Part shown: in pieces, positions 3,092 to 16,639 of the stretch
How the letters are laid out: each line of letters opens with the position of its first letter
How positions within the stretch are numbered: the first letter of the stretch is position 1
Assembly: GCA_036169835.1 (NCBI GenBank)
Contig: JAVHOD010000052.1
Location: 1-34,603 of the forward strand
From: Minisyncoccota bacterium
GTDB lineage: Bacteria; Patescibacteriota; Minisyncoccia; UBA6257; MFKM01
Length of the DNA stretch: 34,603 bases
Reading direction: 5' to 3'
Program-made: the position numbers and the translations under genes
The notes under the pieces: generated by a model
Told to the model about the DNA's origin: nothing
Database searches by the model: none
What the model saw: the letters and a program-made list of their open reading frames with translations, nothing else

Positions 3092-3492
3092 ACGAAATTT
3101 CGGTTGTCAGTCTGAATAATAAATACCGATTTTTAGAGAAAAAAATAAGAAGGATAACCCACAAATTCCTTCAATTGCTGAAAAAAGAAAATTGTCATTT
3201 AGGGATTTTTTTAGTTACCAGCCGGAAAATGAAATTTTTAAATAAGAAATTCAGAAATAAAGACAAGACGGCCGAAATTCTTACTTTTATTGAACCGAAA
3301 AAATATCCCCATCCGGAATCCAAGTTTAAATTTCTTGGGGAAATTTATTTAAATCCCGATTGTATCGCGCCGGAAAATATTAGCCGTCTGGCAGCCCACG
3401 GCCTGCTTCATTTATTCGGTTTTTTTCACAAGAAAAAAAGTGATAGAATAAGAATGGAGGCTAAAGAATATTTTTTAATTTCCCATGTCTAA
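3088..3492 (+). CDS. ybeY: rRNA maturation endoribonuclease YbeY
   Basis: 134 aa with the zinc motif HGLLHLFGFFH (H-x3-H-x5-H). Confidence 0.85.
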   Translation: MNEISVVSLNNKYRFLEKKIRRITHKFLQLLKKENCHLGIFLVTSRKMKFLNKKFRNKDKTAEILTFIEPKKYPHPESKFKFLGEIYLNPDCIAPENISRLAAHGLLHLFGFFHKKKSDRIRMEAKEYFLISHV

Positions 3493-4708
3493 TATCATTA
3501 CCGGTCTTGATATCGGGTCAAGCAGCATCAAAGTCGTAGTTTCGGAAATCAAAAACAACGGCCGTTTTCTGGTTTTAGGAGCTTTCAAACGGCCTTCGGT
3601 CGGATTCAGAAAAGGGGTTTTATCCGATTTTGAAGACGCTACGGTTTCTTTGAGAAACATTATCAGTGATCTTAAGGGATTAAGCCCTAAAGCGCTTAAA
3701 AATGTTTATGTCAATGTTAATGGCGCCAATATTAAATCTTGTCTTTCAAAAGGCGTAGCCGGCGTGGCGCGGGCTGACAGCGAGATTCGCCGTGATGACG
3801 TTGAGAAGGCCATCCAAGCCTCCCGAGCCGTGAATTTGTCTTCAAATTACGTCGTGCTTCACAATATCACCCGCGAATTTTTCGTTGACGGCATCGGAGG
3901 GATTCAAGACCCTTTGGGGATGACTGGTACCAGGTTGGAAGTGAATAGCTTGGTGGTTGGGGCGTTTAGCCCCATAGTTAACGATCTGACCAAATGCCTG
4001 GAGCGGAACGGGATAACAACTGTCAGCGGCTTGATTTTCGGTCCTTTGGCGGCCAGTGAAGCGGTTTTATCAAAACAGCAAAAGGATTTGGGGGTTTTAG
4101 TGTTGGATATCGGGTTTGGCACTTCCAGTTTAGCCGTTTATGAAGAAAATAAAATTCTTAAAACTTTAAGTTTGCCGATAGGAGCCGGTAATATTACCAA
4201 CGACATTGCCGTTGGCTTGAGAATTCCGGTTGGAGCGGCGGAGAAAATAAAATTAAGTTATGGCTTCGCTTTTGCCAAAGAGACGCCGCGGCGCGAAGTT
4301 TTTAATTTACAGGAAATTGATAATTCATTAAAAGGCGAAATATCCAAACGTTTTCTTTCCGAAATTATTGAGGCGCGACTTGCCGAAATCTTTGAAATCA
4401 TAAATAATGAAATTAAGAGTTTGGACCCCAAGATCAATTTTCCGGCGGGCGTGGTTATCACCGGCGGGGGGGCTAAGTTGCCCGGAATAGTTGACCTGGC
4501 TAAGCAAGATTTAAAATTGCCGGTCCAGATTGGGCTTCCCGAGTTGACTAATTTTGATATCAAAGATTACGATTGTCAGGAGCTAATCAGCGATCCGGAA
4601 TTCGCCACGGCCGTAGGGTTGGCTATCTATGGGCTTAATCATCAGGAAGGAAACTCGCGCTCCTCAATTTTTAATTTGAAAAAATTTTTGCAGAATTTGA
4701 TACCATAA
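3485..4708 (+). CDS. ftsA: Cell division protein FtsA
   Basis: 407 aa actin-like ATPase. It has ITGLDIGSSSIKVVV phosphate-1 and VITGGGAKLPG motifs, and sits immediately upstream of ftsZ. Confidence 0.9.
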   Translation: MSNIITGLDIGSSSIKVVVSEIKNNGRFLVLGAFKRPSVGFRKGVLSDFEDATVSLRNIISDLKGLSPKALKNVYVNVNGANIKSCLSKGVAGVARADSEIRRDDVEKAIQASRAVNLSSNYVVLHNITREFFVDGIGGIQDPLGMTGTRLEVNSLVVGAFSPIVNDLTKCLERNGITTVSGLIFGPLAASEAVLSKQQKDLGVLVLDIGFGTSSLAVYEENKILKTLSLPIGAGNITNDIAVGLRIPVGAAEKIKLSYGFAFAKETPRREVFNLQEIDNSLKGEISKRFLSEIIEARLAEIFEIINNEIKSLDPKINFPAGVVITGGGAKLPGIVDLAKQDLKLPVQIGLPELTNFDIKDYDCQELISDPEFATAVGLAIYGLNHQEGNSRSSIFNLKKFLQNLIP

Positions 4709-4711
4709 GAG

Positions 4712-4956
4712 TATGCCCAGTAACTCAACTCCGATGGTATTCTTCTGTGATAATGCGTTGTAGGATAAAAAGATGAAGTTTATTTTATTGGTTATATCTA
4801 AAGAACCTAACAAAACAAACAGAAGAATACATCGGGACAAAAATCATTAAACCAAGATATATGAAAAATAAAAAACAAAACAAGTTAGTCGAATTAATAT
4901 CAATCAACTCCAAGATGAGAGATTTTTGTCTTTCGGAGTTGAGTTAACTGGGTATG
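4712..4956. repeat. Inverted-repeat-bounded intergenic element, copy 3 (237 bp core 4716-4952, flanked by TATG/TATG)
   Basis: cccagtaactcaactccga (4716-4734) pairs with tcggagttgagttaactggg (4933-4952). TATG lies at 4712-4715 and at 4953-4956; the latter contains the ftsZ ATG. A nested 17-bp stem pairs 4731-4748 with 4819-4835. Confidence 0.8.
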
Positions 4957-6087
4957 ACAAAAAATAAAAAATCCAAAGCTTTTAATCTGGCTCATATTAA
5001 AGTGGTGGGCGTGGGCGGCGCCGGCGGCCATATTATTACCCGAATGGCCCAGAAAGAAGGCATTAAAAACGTGGAATTTATTGCCATTAATACCGATGCC
5101 CAGGATTTGGAATACACTCAAGCTCGCAAGAAAATTTATATCGGCAAGACTTTAACAAGAGGGATGGGAGCCGGAATGAATCCGGAATTAGGCAGGCAGG
5201 CGGCCGAGGAAAATCGTTCCGAAATCAGCGAAGCGCTTCAAGGAGCCGATATTGTTTTTATTACGGCGGGTTTGGGCGGGGGGACCGGCTCTTTGGGGGC
5301 AGGCGTGGTGGCTGACATCGCCCGCGAGATCGGCGCTTTGACCATCGCTGTCGTCACCAAGCCGTTTTCTTTTGAAGGTGCCCAGCGGATGCGAATCGCC
5401 CAGGAGGCCTTAGCTCAAATTAAAACCAAAGTTGACACTTTGGTCGTTATTCCCAATGACCGGATTTTCAATATCATCAATAAAGATACCTCGCTTATTA
5501 AGGCCTTTGAATTTGTTGACGACATTTTAAAAAATGCGGTTCAAGCCATTACCGAACTGATTGTTTCTCCGGGGCTTATTAACTTGGATTTTGCCGATAT
5601 TAAAGCCGTAATGAAAGACGCCGGTTCGGCGATTATCGGCATCGGGGTGACCGCGGGAGCGGAGAGGGCGGCTAACGCGGTAAATATGGCTGTCAATTCA
5701 CCCTTATTGGAAAACTCAATTGATGGCGCTAAAGGCGTTCTTTTCAGTATTTCCGGCGGCCGGGACCTTAAAATGAGCGAAATCCAAATTATCGCCAAAA
5801 GTATTTCTGATTCCGTTGATCCCGGGGCTAAAGTTATATTCGGCGCTTATTACGACCGCCGGCTTCCCGCGAAACACATCAAAGTGACGATTATCGCCAC
5901 CGGATTCAGTTTCGGCAATACGCCTCAAATTATAAAGTCGGGTTCTTTGTTCACCCCTTTATACCAAGACGAGGCTGCGGAAATCGCCGACTTAGACAAT
6001 AAAAGAGAGAAACCGGTTGAAGAAAAAAATAAAGTTGAAGAAAAAACAGAAATTCCGTCTTTCCTGCGCCGCAAAAAACATCGGTAA
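4954..6087 (+). CDS. ftsZ: Cell division protein FtsZ
   Basis: 377 aa with VGVGGAGG and the GGGTGS tubulin signature. The C-terminal peptide is IPSFLRRK. Confidence 0.95.
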   Translation: MTKNKKSKAFNLAHIKVVGVGGAGGHIITRMAQKEGIKNVEFIAINTDAQDLEYTQARKKIYIGKTLTRGMGAGMNPELGRQAAEENRSEISEALQGADIVFITAGLGGGTGSLGAGVVADIAREIGALTIAVVTKPFSFEGAQRMRIAQEALAQIKTKVDTLVVIPNDRIFNIINKDTSLIKAFEFVDDILKNAVQAITELIVSPGLINLDFADIKAVMKDAGSAIIGIGVTAGAERAANAVNMAVNSPLLENSIDGAKGVLFSISGGRDLKMSEIQIIAKSISDSVDPGAKVIFGAYYDRRLPAKHIKVTIIATGFSFGNTPQIIKSGSLFTPLYQDEAAEIADLDNKREKPVEEKNKVEEKTEIPSFLRRKKHR

Positions 6088-6103
6088 ATAAATCTCAAAA
6101 ATC
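6074..6103 (+). repeat. Direct repeat DR1 (covers the last ftsZ codons, the stop and 16 nt downstream)
   Basis: aaaaacatcggtaaataaatctcaaaaatc is repeated at 6909-6935 as aaaaacaccggtaaaatctcaaaaatc, with one substitution and a 3-nt gap. Confidence 0.8.
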
Positions 6104-6151
6104 CGTTTCAGCCTGATTTCAAAGCCAGAGCCTCAATTTTTATTTATAAAT

Positions 6152-6157
6152 TAGAAT
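6152..6157 (+). promoter_or_regulatory. -10-like TAGAAT 5 nt upstream of the NYN gene ATG (possible leaderless transcript)
   Basis: Sequence reads tagaat-caaat-ATG, with no Shine-Dalgarno between the box and the start. Confidence 0.3.
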
Positions 6158-6162
6158 CAAAT

Positions 6163-6663
6163 ATGGCAAACAATGCGGCTTTTATAGATAGTAATAATCT
6201 TTATAAGGCAATGGAGATGATAGGCTGGAAGTTGGATAACGCCAAGTTCAGGACATTTCTTTCAGATAAGTATGATGTTTTGAAAGCTTATTTGTGCATC
6301 GGGTATGTACCGCAAAATCAGGCGATGTACACTAAACTGCAACAAAAAGGTTATATTCTGGTTTTCAAACCAATTCTTACGCTAAAAGACGGAACGACAA
6401 AGGGCAATTGCGACGCCGATCTTGTTTTGAGGGCGATGATTGAATATCCTAATTACGATAAAGCAGTCATTGTCGCCGGAGACGGGGATTATTATTCTTT
6501 GATTGATTACCTGAAATCGCAGAATAAATTAGAGCAAGTTCTTGTTCCCGATGAGGAGAGATATTCCGCGTTGCTTAAAAAGGTGAATGATGAGCATTTG
6601 AAATATATTTCCTTCATCAGTCGGATGAAAAATAAATTAGAATATTTATCGAAGAAGCCCTAA
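6163..6663 (+). CDS. NYN/LabA-like (PIN-related) nuclease-domain protein
   Basis: 166 aa with motifs FIDSNNLY, KGNCDADLV and VAGDGDYYSL, typical of the NYN (DUF88/LabA) domain. Confidence 0.7.
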   Translation: MANNAAFIDSNNLYKAMEMIGWKLDNAKFRTFLSDKYDVLKAYLCIGYVPQNQAMYTKLQQKGYILVFKPILTLKDGTTKGNCDADLVLRAMIEYPNYDKAVIVAGDGDYYSLIDYLKSQNKLEQVLVPDEERYSALLKKVNDEHLKYISFISRMKNKLEYLSKKP

Positions 6664-6908
6664 AAATGAAAAGGGCCCCAGAAGGACGGAACCTTAAGGG
6701 AGCCTTTTCGTGATGATACCTCAATATACTACACTAAGCTCCCGTAAAAGTAAACTGTGCATATCTAACGGGGCGAAAATAACCAATAAACCGCACCACT
6801 CGAGTTAAGGATTGAACTCGTACTGCCGCTGTCGAGGGTTGTCATAGTGGCGAAAGTCGAGAACTAATATTAATATTTGTTTGCGCGATTACGAGCTACG
6901 CGATAAAT
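6664..6908 (+). other. Unassigned, relatively GC-rich noncoding segment with several local stems (candidate structured RNA or decayed gene)
   Basis: No ORF of 60 aa or more on either strand. Stems seen: GGGAGC 6698-6703 / GCTCCC 6738-6743; CGAGTT 6801-6806 / AACTCG 6815-6820; GCCGC 6825-6829 / GTGGC 6847-6851. It lies inside the DR1/DR2-bounded cassette. The strand is not established. Confidence 0.3.
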
Positions 6909-6935
6909 AAAAACACCGGTAAAATCTCAAAAATC
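6909..6935 (+). repeat. Direct repeat DR2 (copy of the ftsZ 3' end)
   Basis: See DR1. It lies about 830 bp downstream in the same orientation. Confidence 0.8.
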
Positions 6936-7056
6936 AAATTTTATTAAGATTTGATACCACATTTTTTAGATATAATTTACTTAGTGACCCAAATAGTATA
7001 TATTTAGGTTAGTATAATAACCTAAACAACATATATGTCAGTTATAAGACGTATTC

Positions 7057-7084
7057 AAAAAGACGGTTGAATACCCGTCTTTTT
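7057..7084 (-). terminator. Rho-independent terminator downstream of nrdG (bidirectional shape)
   Basis: aaaaagacgg-ttgaatac-ccgtcttttt: a 6-bp GC-containing stem flanked by A5/T5 runs, 5 nt after the nrdG stop. Confidence 0.75.
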
Positions 7085-7088
7085 GATT

Positions 7089-7817
7089 TTAAAGATTTCT
7101 TAACTCGGTAGGCAGATATTTATTGCATTTTTTTTGAATGGTTTCTAACTGCTTTTGTCCGAAGGGTTTGTATTTTTTATATTTCGGGTTGATTGTCTTT
7201 TCGGGTTTGAATTGCTGAAGAAAATATTTTTTAGCGCCTTTTAATTGTTTGGCTATATCTACAATATCTTTTAGTTGGTGTAGTTTCGGTATGATTGTGG
7301 TTCTGAATTCATAATTAATTCCGGATTTTTTGATTATCTCAATGCTTTTTTTAATTTTTTCTAAATTAACTTTCGTCCCCGCCACTTCGTCATATTTTGA
7401 AAATTGGGAATTGGAAATTGGAAATTGCGCCAAAGGCGCCTTTATGTCCATAGCCACATAATCTATGAGTTTTTCATCAATTAAGTTTTTTAACATTTCG
7501 GGATTTGAGCCGTTGGTGTCAAGCTTCACCGCATATCCAAGTTTTTTTATTTTTTTTATAAAATCCGGTAGGTTTTTATTTATGGTAGGTTCTCCGCCGC
7601 AGATTGCCACGCCATCCAATAGTCCTTTTCTTTGTTTTAAAAAATCAAAAAAATCTTTTTCGGAAATTTTAGCGTGTTTGTTAATATCTTCGGCTAAAAC
7701 CAATTCGGGATTATAGCACCAGGGACAGGAAAAATTACAGCCAACTAAAAAAACCGTGGCCGCGATTTTGCCCGGATAATCAATAAGGGTAAGTTTTTGG
7801 AGACCGCCTATCAGCAC
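7089..7817 (-). CDS. nrdG: Anaerobic ribonucleoside-triphosphate reductase activating protein (radical SAM)
   Basis: 242 aa with the CNFSCPWCYN radical-SAM cluster motif and GGEPT. It follows nrdD with a 1-nt gap. Confidence 0.85.
   Translation of the reverse strand: MLIGGLQKLTLIDYPGKIAATVFLVGCNFSCPWCYNPELVLAEDINKHAKISEKDFFDFLKQRKGLLDGVAICGGEPTINKNLPDFIKKIKKLGYAVKLDTNGSNPEMLKNLIDEKLIDYVAMDIKAPLAQFPISNSQFSKYDEVAGTKVNLEKIKKSIEIIKKSGINYEFRTTIIPKLHQLKDIVDIAKQLKGAKKYFLQQFKPEKTINPKYKKYKPFGQKQLETIQKKCNKYLPTELRNL
7399..7439. repeat. Heptamer tandem repeat plus GC hairpin inside the nrdG CDS
   Basis: On the coding strand, aatttcc aatttcc aattccc aatttt encodes QFPISNSQFS. It is preceded by the hairpin gcgcc-aaa-ggcgc (7427-7439), which encodes APLA. 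Confidence 0.7.
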
Positions 7818-14445: not shown

Positions 14446-16338
14446 TTATTTTTGGAGCGTTTGAGTGAAGACGCGCATTATTGAGCCTGATAAAGATTCC
14501 GGATTAATAGAACCGCTGGGCGGAGGAGTGGTATTTTCGGTTGGCGGCGGAGTTTGAGTTGGCGGGGGAGGAGTATTACCTGTTGGCGGTTGCTGATTTG
14601 CCGGCGGCATCATTCCCTCCGGCGGATTTGTCATTCCCTGCTGGGGTTGTTGAGGTTGTTGTCCTTGTGGTGGCATATTTTGTTGAGTCGGCGGCTGTTG
14701 GTTGCCGGTTGGCGGCTGCTGTTGTGTTCGCATTTGTCCTTGTTGTCTAGGCTGTCCGGGTTGATTAAGTTGACCGGGCTGATTTGGTTGACTTGGTTGA
14801 AAATTTTTACATTCCTCAGGATTAGAAGTGCAGTATTTTTGGCATTCTTCCGGCCCCTTGCAACCGCCTGGACCAGCCTGCTGTGGCATTTGTTGGCCGC
14901 CTGGATTTACAGTCCCTGATCCAGGTTGAAAATTTTTACATTCCTCAGGGGTTTTACACCCGCCCAGCTCTCCTTGTCCGCCAGCCGACATCATACCTCT
15001 GGCGTTTGATCCGCCTTGGTCTTGAGACCCGCTTTGCCCCTGGCCTTGGGTTCCGCCCTGGCCTTGTTGATTTTGTTGATTTGACTGACCAGGTTGATCT
15101 TGGCCTTGCTGATTTTGACCCGGCCTTCTTTCTTGCGTTCCAAATTTTTGAAAACACTGATTGATAGAATCACCAGATTGTCGCCCAATCACAGATCCAG
15201 TTTTCATTTTTTCAACAACATCAGCGCCTAAAGAAGACGATATACAATCCAAAACTTCAGGCGGTATTGAAGAAAAAGAGTCTTTCATTTTTTGCTGGCC
15301 CTCTTCCATCCTTTTTAGATCAGCCTCGGGAATCATTCCATTTTCTTTGCCAAACTGAAAACAAGTTTCTTGATTGTCGGGATTATTGCAAAAAGTATCG
15401 CATTCGTCTTTGTTTTTACAGCCGCCCGGCCCCTTGCCTCCGGTCTTACGAACCATAACCGCGTCTTCTTTGCTCATAAACCCGGCCGCTTCAGCGAAGC
15501 TGGTGCATTCTTCAAAATGAGCGTCTTGCGAGCAATAAGTATTGCATTCCTCTTTGCCTTTACAGGCCGGCGGTTTTATCCCTTGTTTTATAGCCGCCAG
15601 CATTTTTTGGGAGTCGGCTTTTTCTTGTTCGTTCATAAAACCGGCTTCAATGGCGAAATTTGTACAAACTTCCATATTATTAGGTTCGCCGCAGTATTGG
15701 TCGCACGCTTCTTTGCCTTTACAGGGCGGCGGTTTCACGCCTCTTTTTAGAGCCGCCAGCATTTTTTGAGAATCTTCAAGTTCTTTGCCCTGGATAAAAC
15801 CCGCTTCCACGCCGAAAGCCACGCATTTCTCCATATTATTCGGGTCCTCGCAATAAGAATCGCATTCTTTTTTATTTTTACAGGGCGGCGGTTTCACGCC
15901 TCTGGCGATGGCCGCTTGAACTTGTTTGGCTTCCGCCAAATCTTTCGCCGACATTAAATTATTTTTTTCCGCGAAAGAAACGCAATCATTGATGTTGTTG
16001 ATATCGTCGCAATATGTTTCGCAGGCGTCTTTGCCGGCGCAGCCGCCGGGCCCCTTGCTCCCTGACGCCACGAAATTTTTGGCCGTATTGACTTCATCTT
16101 TCGACATCAGGTTGTTTTTTTCGGCGAAATTAAGACAAGCAGTGTTATTGTCCGATTTGTCGCAATAGGTCTTGCAGGATGCCGCGTCTTGGCAATTGCC
16201 AAGCTCCTTTACCGGATATTGGAGATTTGCCGCGCCGGCTGTTTCTTGAGCCAAAGCCACTTTATTAAATAAACCAACCGAGCCGATTATTGCTATCGCG
16301 GAGATGATAATAAAACTTATGAGATATTTTGTTTTCAT
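14446..16338 (-). CDS. Secreted cysteine-repeat protein with a Q/P/G-rich C-terminal half
   Basis: The start is placed at ATG 16338 (MKTKYLISFIIISAIAIIGSVG..., a signal/anchor). It has six about 45-aa modules with C-x5-C-x3-C-x9-C spacing followed by F(A/G)(E/I/V).. helices, plus two partial modules, then long Q/P/G/N low-complexity sequence. Confidence 0.8.
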   Translation of the reverse strand: MKTKYLISFIIISAIAIIGSVGLFNKVALAQETAGAANLQYPVKELGNCQDAASCKTYCDKSDNNTACLNFAEKNNLMSKDEVNTAKNFVASGSKGPGGCAGKDACETYCDDINNINDCVSFAEKNNLMSAKDLAEAKQVQAAIARGVKPPPCKNKKECDSYCEDPNNMEKCVAFGVEAGFIQGKELEDSQKMLAALKRGVKPPPCKGKEACDQYCGEPNNMEVCTNFAIEAGFMNEQEKADSQKMLAAIKQGIKPPACKGKEECNTYCSQDAHFEECTSFAEAAGFMSKEDAVMVRKTGGKGPGGCKNKDECDTFCNNPDNQETCFQFGKENGMIPEADLKRMEEGQQKMKDSFSSIPPEVLDCISSSLGADVVEKMKTGSVIGRQSGDSINQCFQKFGTQERRPGQNQQGQDQPGQSNQQNQQGQGGTQGQGQSGSQDQGGSNARGMMSAGGQGELGGCKTPEECKNFQPGSGTVNPGGQQMPQQAGPGGCKGPEECQKYCTSNPEECKNFQPSQPNQPGQLNQPGQPRQQGQMRTQQQPPTGNQQPPTQQNMPPQGQQPQQPQQGMTNPPEGMMPPANQQPPTGNTPPPPTQTPPPTENTTPPPSGSINPESLSGSIMRVFTQTLQK

Positions 16339-16339
16339 A

Positions 16340-16639
16340 TTATTCAAAAGGATTAGTTTTAACATTTTTAAAGGGGTTAGCTTTGTCGGCCGGATTGACG
16401 TCGGGTTTGCTTTCTAGGGGGTTTGCCCCTACCGAGGGCAGGACGCCTTTGGTGGCGCTTTCGGTTATAGCTCCCGCCGCTTCGCTGGCATTTTCCAATG
16501 CTTGGGTAAAGGCCTGGGACTCGGTTGACTTAGGCGTTGTTTTGGACTTTTTCCAATTACTCCAGTAGAAATAACCGCCGACTCCCAGCCCAATTAATAA
16601 AACGACCGCTATTATTAATAAAAGAGTTTTTTTATTCAT
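16340..16639 (-). CDS. Small membrane-anchored hypothetical protein
   Basis: 99 aa with an N-terminal TM helix (LLLIIAVVLLIGLGVGGYFYW). Its stop lies 1 nt upstream of the Cys-repeat gene start. Confidence 0.6.
   Translation of the reverse strand: MNKKTLLLIIAVVLLIGLGVGGYFYWSNWKKSKTTPKSTESQAFTQALENASEAAGAITESATKGVLPSVGANPLESKPDVNPADKANPFKNVKTNPFE

Follow-up and report, generated by a model that had tools for sequence, protein, structure and literature searches.

Between ftsZ and an nrdG-like gene of a Minisyncoccota bacterium (GTDB lineage Bacteria; Patescibacteriota; Minisyncoccia; UBA6257; MFKM01) lies an insert of about 805 nt that carries a gene for a predicted NYN/LabA-like nuclease and, converging on the 3′ end of that gene, a putative gene for an antisense RNA of about 59 nt. 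We analysed it within a window of 34,603 nt (contig JAVHOD010000052.1 of assembly GCA_036169835.1, positions 1 to 34,603 of the forward strand), whose NYN and FtsZ proteins both have their closest annotated homologues in Patescibacteria group bacterium. The explanation that we favour, with a probability of about 0.6, joins a history to a function: a piece of chromosome like that of a close relative would have been copied in at the ftsZ 3′ end, and the nuclease and its antisense RNA would act as a toxin–antitoxin-like cassette. The functional core would be a self-contained pair of genes, one for the predicted NYN RNase and the other for the convergent RNA, with its own sigma-70-type promoter and terminator hairpin. 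The insertion history as reconstructed below is very probably right, the small RNA likely exists, and a toxin–antitoxin type of function, judged by comparison of sequences, is tentative and falls a little short of even odds. An original prediction, drawn from the letters of the window, had taken the cassette for an att-like (attachment-site-like) site-specific insertion, with the nuclease as the candidate mobility function, and had offered a toxin–antitoxin-like module as an alternative; it is this alternative that now stands as the best-supported candidate function.

The insertion between ftsZ and nrdG

The features on which the argument draws are these:

4954-6087, plus strand: ftsZ, the target gene with the duplicated 3′ end, an open reading frame (ORF) whose close homologues carry the Pfam domains Tubulin and FtsZ_C
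6074-6103: direct repeat 1 (DR1), AAAAACATCGGTAAATAAATCTCAAAAATC, the final four ftsZ codons, the stop and 16 nt
6094-6153, plus strand: what remains of the final 20 codons of a gene for a PMT-family glycosyltransferase, non-functional debris here
6095-6791: block of 697 nt collinear with positions 2077-2784 of comparison locus L097 (PMT end, NYN, small RNA, most of the NYN–ychF spacer)
6152-6157, plus strand: -10-like box TAGAAT, with the ATG of NYN 5 nt further on, predicting a leaderless mRNA
6163-6663, plus strand: gene for the predicted NYN/LabA-like PIN-fold nuclease, 166 aa
6662-6720, minus strand: predicted antisense small RNA of about 59 nt, with 5′ tail (GG)UAUCAUCACG, hairpin 6668-6709, loop UUCCGU and U-tract
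6726-6754, minus strand: predicted small-RNA promoter, with -35 TTTACT (6749-6754), 17-nt spacer and -10 TAGTAT (6726-6731), as reverse complements
6792-6908: filler of 117 nt between the donor block and DR2
6909-6935: direct repeat 2 (DR2), AAAAACACCGGTAAAATCTCAAAAATC, a second ftsZ 3′ end and 12 nt downstream
7089-7817, minus strand: nrdG-like radical-SAM activase, next to ftsZ in sister genomes and convergent to NYN, with nrdD beyond

The insertion is read from empty sites. As the original prediction had proposed, sister genomes were searched for ftsZ without the cassette (L-numbers denote fetched comparison loci, L006-L085 being 80 genome loci with an NYN homologue), and in the genomes of L092 and L096, whose FtsZ proteins are 91% and 85% identical to that of the window, ftsZ lies directly before nrdG. 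The distance from the ftsZ stop to the nrdG stop is 35 nt in L092, 2 nt in L096 and 1001 nt in the window, and all three share gene order on both sides (S26 peptidase, hisS, HIT, S21, ybeY, ftsA, ftsZ, nrdG, nrdD, fabA-like, POR), while ftsZ adjoins NYN in none of the 80 genome loci. By this comparison the insert of about 805 nt (6104-6908) is a recent, lineage-specific acquisition between ftsZ and nrdG, in keeping with the earlier claim of a lineage-specific insertion at the ftsZ 3′ end.

The duplicated ftsZ end is real as well. A single transition and a single indel of 3 nt separate DR1 from DR2, and the Smith–Waterman score of the pair, 40, exceeds the maximum of 34 (21.0 ± 2.5) reached when the downstream segment was resampled 1000 times by a first-order Markov (dinucleotide-frequency) model; elsewhere in the window, a comparable direct-repeat pair occurs only within a coding tandem repeat. 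DR2 restores K-H-R-stop with a His codon CAC, as in the ftsZ of three relatives, whose ends read AAAAAACACC..., and DR1 has CAT. An alignment search for a longer, decayed ftsZ duplication 5′ of DR2 found none. The pair is a target duplication rather than a chance match, as had been proposed. The ftsZ gene, the PMT remnant and NYN (4954-6663) share one reading frame, the sole interruption of which is the ftsZ TAA at 6085-6087, no further stop occurring in that frame before the NYN ATG.

Most of what lies between the repeats is collinear with another chromosome. In L097 the gene order is PMT glycosyltransferase, NYN, ychF, and the closest NYN genes (86-92% identity; L086, L089 and L098) also lie upstream of ychF, while in four close relatives examined the upstream neighbours of NYN differ. 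Against L097, twelve of the eighteen 40-nt blocks are 85-97% identical and the other six, comprising the flanks and the NYN 5′ end, 55-82%; homology ends 16 nt short of the ychF start. The PMT remnant is recognised by tblastn (80% identity over 20 aa, E 1.5e-5) and by nucleotide alignment. Because the cut lies inside this neighbouring gene, the block appears to be a slice of a relative's chromosome, not an element with ends of its own. At the left junction, TCAAAAA(T/C)C is common to donor (…ATCAAAAACCC…) and target (…ATCTCAAAAATCAAA…), and the final 9 nt of DR1 (TCAAAAATC) double as microhomology with the donor.

The original prediction had placed between the repeats only the NYN gene and a 245-nt ORF-free, comparatively GC-rich segment. 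Both are indeed there, but so is the PMT remnant, and the ORF-free stretch is composite: the gene for the small RNA and the promoter take up 6662-6754, some 37 nt of spacer from the donor run on to 6791, and filler makes up the rest. The GC content of the stretch (0.39-0.45 vs 0.24-0.31 in the surroundings) is raised in the expected direction, but only mildly. For the 117-nt filler, neither the window nor the fetched loci offered a match, and Rfam gave none of note. A remnant of the ychF 5′ end in 6792-6908 was considered and rejected, alignment scores lying within those of shuffles and no frame resembling the YchF N-terminus.

The spacer beyond DR2 (6936-7088, before nrdG) has no counterpart in the sister genomes, and no match to it was found in the window or the fetched loci. 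It contains a 24-nt palindrome at 7003-7026, promoter-like sites on both strands, a sub-threshold Rfam match to the trpB motif (E 0.19), and one further feature:

7055-7086: perfect 12-bp hairpin TCAAAAAGACGG/CCGTCTTTTTGA, a bidirectional terminator-like site just before the nrdG stop

Flanking duplications and routes of insertion

Comparable repeats flank the cassette in other genomes. When the 400 nt upstream of each NYN cassette were aligned with the 500 nt downstream, and scores of at least 40 were counted with shifted segments as controls, 5 of 73 genome loci (controls, 2 of 256) and 4 of 55 loci of an independent metagenome set (controls, 1 of 89) reached the threshold, in all 9 of 128 NYN loci against 3 of 345 controls, an enrichment of about 8-fold (Fisher p = 6e-4). 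Ten other NYN loci are flanked by repeats of host sequence, 24-184 nt long and each different. That of L143 (2314-2497 and 3086-3269) spans 184 nt at 97% identity and has the 3′ end of the upstream gene as target; those of L024 (133 nt) and L063 (81 nt) each comprise the 3′ end of an upstream ORF and spacer; the 39-nt repeat of L105 (2446-2484) is the 5′ end of the downstream trpS; and shorter ones occur in L010, L061, L008, L009, L111 and L178. The repeats that the original prediction had hoped to see at the flanks of other NYN copies therefore recur, but their targets, lengths and junctions all differ.

The inserts of the eleven repeat-flanked loci measure 582, 588, 592, 608, 614, 622, 657, 658, 705, 805 (the window) and 915 nt. 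Counted by hand on the junction sequences, the conserved A-F-I-D codons lie 11, 15, 15, 31, 37, 55, 70, 74, 75, 113 and 119 nt beyond the left junction, and the right repeat lies -5, -2, 0, 17, 17, 18, 26, 43, 56, 157 and 257 nt beyond the small-RNA -35 box. Some junctions cut the N-terminal codons of NYN and others the -35 hexamer, rebuilt from matching host GTCAA, and the -35 box is retained in every repeat-flanked insertion. In L143 and L024 NYN continues from a start codon within the duplicated host sequence, and in L105 the first 12 trpS codons of the duplicated 5′ end run on in frame into NYN, or translation may start at a GTG that belongs to the insert. Microhomology is frequent at the junctions. 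In five close relatives, sequence conservation sets in only at the NYN start codon and runs out at the small-RNA -35 box. We read these one-sided, spread-out distances from a functional minimum as random breakpoints that appear to have been filtered for a complete cassette.

In the history that we favour, 697 nt of a PMT–NYN–ychF locus resembling the one in a close relative would have been copied into the ftsZ–nrdG site by a microhomology-associated insertion that is not site-specific, and that replication template switching, or other illegitimate recombination, would fit. A template switch would leave the target, copy the donor and return behind its point of departure, thereby duplicating the target; the filler of 117 nt would stem from the same event, and the direct repeat from 27-30 nt of target that were copied a second time. 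Like events, with target duplications of 24-184 nt, may account for the cassette elsewhere, at different sites of different genomes.

Other routes can be set against this one. The cassette might be a discrete mobile element with att-like site specificity, moved by an integrase acting in trans or by the nuclease and its RNA, the repeat being its attL/attR core; the repeat is real and regenerates the ftsZ end, flanking repeats are enriched around NYN cassettes, six of the eleven inserts (582-622 nt) amount almost exactly to the conserved cassette, and the DR1 His codon is unlike that of DR2 and the relatives, as an element-borne replacement end might be. However, neither the insert nor the window ORFs scanned include an integrase or transposase, just as the original prediction had noted; synteny on both sides is that of the sisters; the block in the window carries a truncated donor gene end and filler; and across loci the targets, repeat lengths and junctions vary, some cutting into NYN or the -35 box, without a shared left end, given where upstream conservation begins in the close relatives. 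Having found no recombinase in the insert or among the ORFs scanned, and no constant core or ends at the eleven loci, we no longer favour the site-specific interpretation, which we consider improbable, and we found nothing to show that the NYN protein mobilises the cassette. At similarly long odds, the pair could be a minimal selfish element that promotes its own copying without a conventional transposase or integrase, the nuclease, perhaps directed or restrained by the RNA, making nicks or breaks at which template-switch repair would insert the cassette with its 24-184-nt duplication; what chance this reading has it owes to the clustering of repeat-flanked inserts at 582-622 nt and to the roughly 8-fold enrichment of the repeats. 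Insertion through RNA, in which reverse transcription of a leaderless NYN read-through transcript would take place at a nick in the target, much as in target-primed reverse transcription, would suit the long and variable target duplications and the left junctions of L143 and L024, which coincide with the ATG, the predicted start of the transcript, or lie close to it; yet neither cassette nor window has a reverse transcriptase, there is no A-tail, the block in the window begins 68 nt upstream of the ATG, within the neighbour gene, so that its boundary is not at a transcript end, and at other loci 11-119 nt separate the left junction from the core, which leaves this route scarcely credible.

The nuclease gene and its predicted antisense RNA

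Assignment of the 166-aa protein to the NYN/LabA-like nucleases, part of the original prediction, is upheld by a profile search (Pfam PF01936, 50.4 bits vs a cut-off of 24.2, E 4e-13) and by a profile match to PDB 2qip (E 1e-13). Its AlphaFold2 model (pLDDT 89.8) has a PIN-like alpha/beta fold, with 2qip (TM 0.73) and the MARF1 NYN domains 5yaa and 6fdl as best Foldseek matches, and among 37 sequences the acidic metal-binding residues D84, D107 and D109 are invariant and D9 is at least 90% conserved. By profile, modelled fold and acidic residues, the protein is a predicted member of the NYN domain family (PF01936/COG1432, LabA-like). A 2017 survey of the PIN superfamily lists bacterial PF01936 proteins as 'function unknown' and ties them by gene context to tRNA/rRNA processing (PMC5499597). 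PADLOC gives a weak partial match to its generic 'NYN' model only. The TAGAAT box 5 nt 5′ of the ATG is in place, and in about 20 of the 80 genome loci, read from the upstream sequences, a TATAAT-like box lies 5-10 nt before the ATG without a Shine-Dalgarno sequence; because of this recurring pattern the NYN mRNA is probably leaderless, as first suggested. An exact 12-nt repeat, ATAAATTAGAAT, occurs at 6146-6157, where it holds the -10-like box, and at 6632-6643, where it encodes a conserved N-K-L-E-Y near the NYN C-terminus; the pair may be chance, or the trace of a former tandem cassette junction.

The original prediction had also envisaged an RNA from the 245-nt segment beside the nuclease gene. 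Comparison supports an RNA partner, but a minus-strand one of about 59 nt in the first quarter of that segment, not a 245-nt plus-strand RNA. With 6661-6940 as query, nhmmer matched the NYN 3′ end of most loci, through the first 60-100 nt or so only. Read along the minus strand, the conserved element begins with a promoter, TTGAC(A/T), a 16-18-nt spacer and a TATAAT-like box (often preceded by TG), followed after about 7-10 nt by AUCAC(C/G)A(C/U)G, a long hairpin with a near-invariant loop region GGUUYCGUCC, and a U-tract; a 5′ AUCAC tail and the hairpin loop UUYCGU mark the family. Matches to the sigma-70 consensus of at least 9/12 occupy this fixed place at 60 of 72 family sites, compared with 2.7% of random windows from the same loci. 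In the seed alignment 12 of 16 hairpin pairs show double changes (81 cells), and in a metagenome set, independent but aligned by the model and hence leaning towards it, all 16 show compensatory changes (165 cells); in neither case did any of 500 shuffles score as high. In the window the RNA matches the covariance model at 76.7 bits (E 4e-14) and folds at -20.5 kcal/mol (z -3.9), its ends (~6720 to ~6662) being placed by promoter and U-tract.

Almost every member of this NYN subfamily has such a partner. According to the covariance model it lies on the minus strand, at the 3′ end of NYN, in 73 of 78 genome loci and in 65 of 71 loci of the independent metagenome set, and all but one of the remaining loci have a recognisable variant, which gives at least 147 of 149 NYN homologues with a small RNA overall. 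The variant reads AGAGGCAUUACC…GGGACGAAACCC…AUCGUGAU…TGTCAA downstream, and the divergent subfamily (L012, L030, L071, L072, L116, L120, L156, L176 and L099) scores low with covariance model R1; one of its loci is on a viral contig, and those in the genome set are, by source records, mostly from phyla other than Patescibacteria. Both viral contigs with NYN also carry the element, and the covariance model did not find it at the empty-site loci. In the window, RNA gene and NYN are convergent, and the RNA overlaps the stop codon and 3′ untranslated region (UTR) of NYN; in most of the relatives aligned, NYN ends 20-40 nt within the element, and therefore the coding end overlaps the RNA gene. Tail and loop are conserved between loci whose NYN proteins are 50-55% identical, which suggests selection on the RNA sequence itself and not on complementarity alone.

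Several other identities for the segment were tried. At Rfam 15 gathering thresholds the window has no match, and between 6050 and 7100 only chance-level matches appear at E<=10; a C-box-like GUGAUGA and snoRNA matches are likewise at chance level, the motif being GUGGUGA in most relatives. A tRNA/tmRNA search of the window found none. A single long structured RNA was discarded, the whole 276-nt segment folding at z -1.6 (plus) and -1.0 (minus), and pairing of the loop with the NYN coding sequence (GACGGAAC at 6388-6395) is coincidental, not being conserved in relatives. Resemblances to a hammerhead core and to the 16S 3′ end (AUCACC) were set aside, since a hammerhead would need another order of elements and conservation extends over 5-6 nt only.

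If made, the small RNA would restrain the nuclease, by forming a duplex with the 3′ end of the NYN mRNA that RNase III-type decay would then remove, presumably as in bsrG/SR4, or by binding the protein directly, after the manner of type III systems, or by both. That loop and tail are conserved tilts the balance towards some recognition by the protein, with which this is compatible without amounting to proof. Toxicity of the protein would be in keeping, indirectly, with a PIN-fold nuclease whose predicted active site is intact and with the presence of the RNA gene in every retained insertion. The pair would thus be an addiction or defence module, and this would explain why complete copies persist wherever they have landed. 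The NYN subfamily has thousands of members, mainly in Patescibacteria but also, by source records, in Omnitrophota, Nitrospirota, Dehalococcoidia, Bacteroidia and Deltaproteobacteria, with homologues of at least 50% identity. L083 and L085 have two tandem cassettes each, and in L045 an orphan copy of the small RNA (3886-3959; 44.6 bits) lies directly 5′ of an intact cassette, without an NYN remnant before it. Searches of plasmid and phage collections gave no tblastn match at 1e-10; two viral contigs matched.

Two readings would dispense with a toxin–antitoxin pair. In one, NYN is an ordinary enzyme of RNA processing or turnover, the small RNA a cis-regulator only, and the insertion an ordinary rearrangement with no selfish component. 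The very high conservation of the protein, its housekeeping neighbours (ychF, dnaB, ftsZ), the absence of the family from plasmid and phage collections and the reported gene-context link of PF01936 to tRNA/rRNA processing speak for it; against it stand the changing neighbourhoods (ftsZ adjoins NYN at none of the 80 loci, and the four close relatives differ upstream), homologues of at least 50% identity in several phyla, the tandem copies and orphan RNA copy, the recurrence of recent insertions, and a self-contained two-promoter architecture atypical of core RNA-processing genes, and we hold it to be unlikely. The other denies a separate small RNA: the hairpin would be a plus-strand terminator or stability element at the 3′ end of the NYN mRNA, and the minus-strand promoter fortuitous. 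The hairpin does form on that strand (81% of cells pair), is located as expected for an NYN terminator, and gives weak plus-strand covariance-model matches at the same places. But the paired TTGAC(A/T) and TATAAT-like boxes keep a fixed minus-strand distance at those 60 of 72 sites, the U-tract and the terminator-like call are found on the minus strand only, G-U pairs favour the minus-strand reading by 82 to 32, and every repeat-flanked insertion has kept the -35 box; we think this reading very improbable.

A number of points also weigh against the toxin–antitoxin-like cassette that we prefer. The small-RNA promoter of the window matches its family consensus (TTGACA-N17-TATAAT) at only 8 of 12 positions and is absent from the list of a generic promoter scan, and overlap with the RNA is confined here to the NYN stop codon and 3′ UTR and spares the coding body. 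Transcription of the RNA and its ends are read from sequence, the insertion mechanism is deduced from junction anatomy alone, and toxicity of NYN and its neutralisation by the RNA are predictions. The filler matches none of the fetched loci, and the clustering of six of eleven inserts near the minimal cassette could mean defined element ends. The plasmid and phage collections contain no member of the family and viral contigs hardly any, and NYN, whose homologues in different phyla are 50-90% identical, shows more conservation than is usual in a toxin.

Surrounding features and relation to known systems

Elsewhere in the window, a 639-aa ORF (14446-16365, minus strand), apparently Cys-rich, contains 159-nt (53-aa) tandem coding repeats and is the origin of the only other strong direct repeat. 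Three copies of an element resembling a miniature inverted-repeat transposable element lie at 209-386, 989-1143 and 4716-4951, each with a terminal inverted repeat of 19 nt, CCCAGT(A)AACTCAACTCCGA, at its ends (6 matches vs 0.01 expected). The third occupies the spacer between ftsZ and its 5′ neighbour, which is 245 nt long here and 26 nt in the sister locus L092, with TATG on either side, the right one including the ftsZ start codon:

3485-4708: ftsA, ORF 5′ of ftsZ

If the pairing proposed here holds, the NYN/LabA proteins (PF01936, COG1432), abundant in bacteria, gain a testable frame as RNA-restrained nucleases, almost every member of the subfamily being paired with a dedicated convergent small RNA. 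That RNA is a candidate new family, absent from Rfam 15, and the pair a candidate RNA-antitoxin system in which the fold of the toxin is new. The insertions, with their empty-site comparators and long duplications, form a rare record of ultra-small genomes gaining DNA without dedicated recombinases.

The insert shares with att-duplicating integrative elements a direct repeat that regenerates the 3′ end of the target gene, and empty sites in relatives; it differs in having no recombinase, in its imprecise ends, in its donor fragment and filler, and in the other targets and repeat lengths found elsewhere. Closer in anatomy is the templated insertion by microhomology-mediated template switching known as fork stalling and template switching or microhomology-mediated break-induced replication (FoSTeS/MMBIR), mostly described in eukaryotes, with which it has in common junction microhomology, filler DNA and a target duplicated on both sides of the copied segment; in Patescibacteria such a process is suggested by anatomy only. 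LabA itself is a cyanobacterial clock-output factor, and the window protein resembles the LabA/COG1432 NYN group (PF01936; 2qip; MARF1) in sequence, fold and acidic active-site residues, but no RNA partner has been described for that family in the full text that we searched, nor the NYN–small RNA pair as such. With VapBC and other PIN-domain type II systems the cassette shares a candidate toxin of PIN-like, metal-dependent RNase fold and a patchy distribution, but it has no gene for a protein antitoxin, and its nuclease belongs to the NYN (PF01936) and not the VapC branch.

The two closest models are toxin–antitoxin systems with RNA antitoxins. Type I systems with convergent antisense RNAs overlapping at the 3′ end, which we take to include bsrG/SR4 and txpA/RatA of Bacillus subtilis, have the same arrangement of protein and small-RNA genes, an RNA with its own promoter and terminator hairpin, and a compact, self-contained, horizontally mobile form; here too a predicted antisense RNA gene with promoter and terminator overlaps NYN, transcription being deduced from sequence. 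The window protein, unlike theirs, is a soluble PIN-fold nuclease of 166 aa and not a small (<60 aa) hydrophobic peptide, although enzyme toxins (SymE, RalR) are known exceptions among type I systems, and tail and loop of its RNA, about 59 nt long, are conserved across phyla beyond the needs of cis-antisense pairing. From type III systems (ToxIN; AvcID, PMC10511110) the cassette departs in its single hairpin unit, no tandem RNA repeats occurring in 6660-6935, and in an RNA gene that is downstream and antisense instead of upstream in the same transcript, binding of RNA by protein being hypothetical here; like them, it pairs an enzyme, a candidate RNase toxin, with a small non-coding RNA, and the conserved primary sequence of that RNA would fit recognition by the protein.

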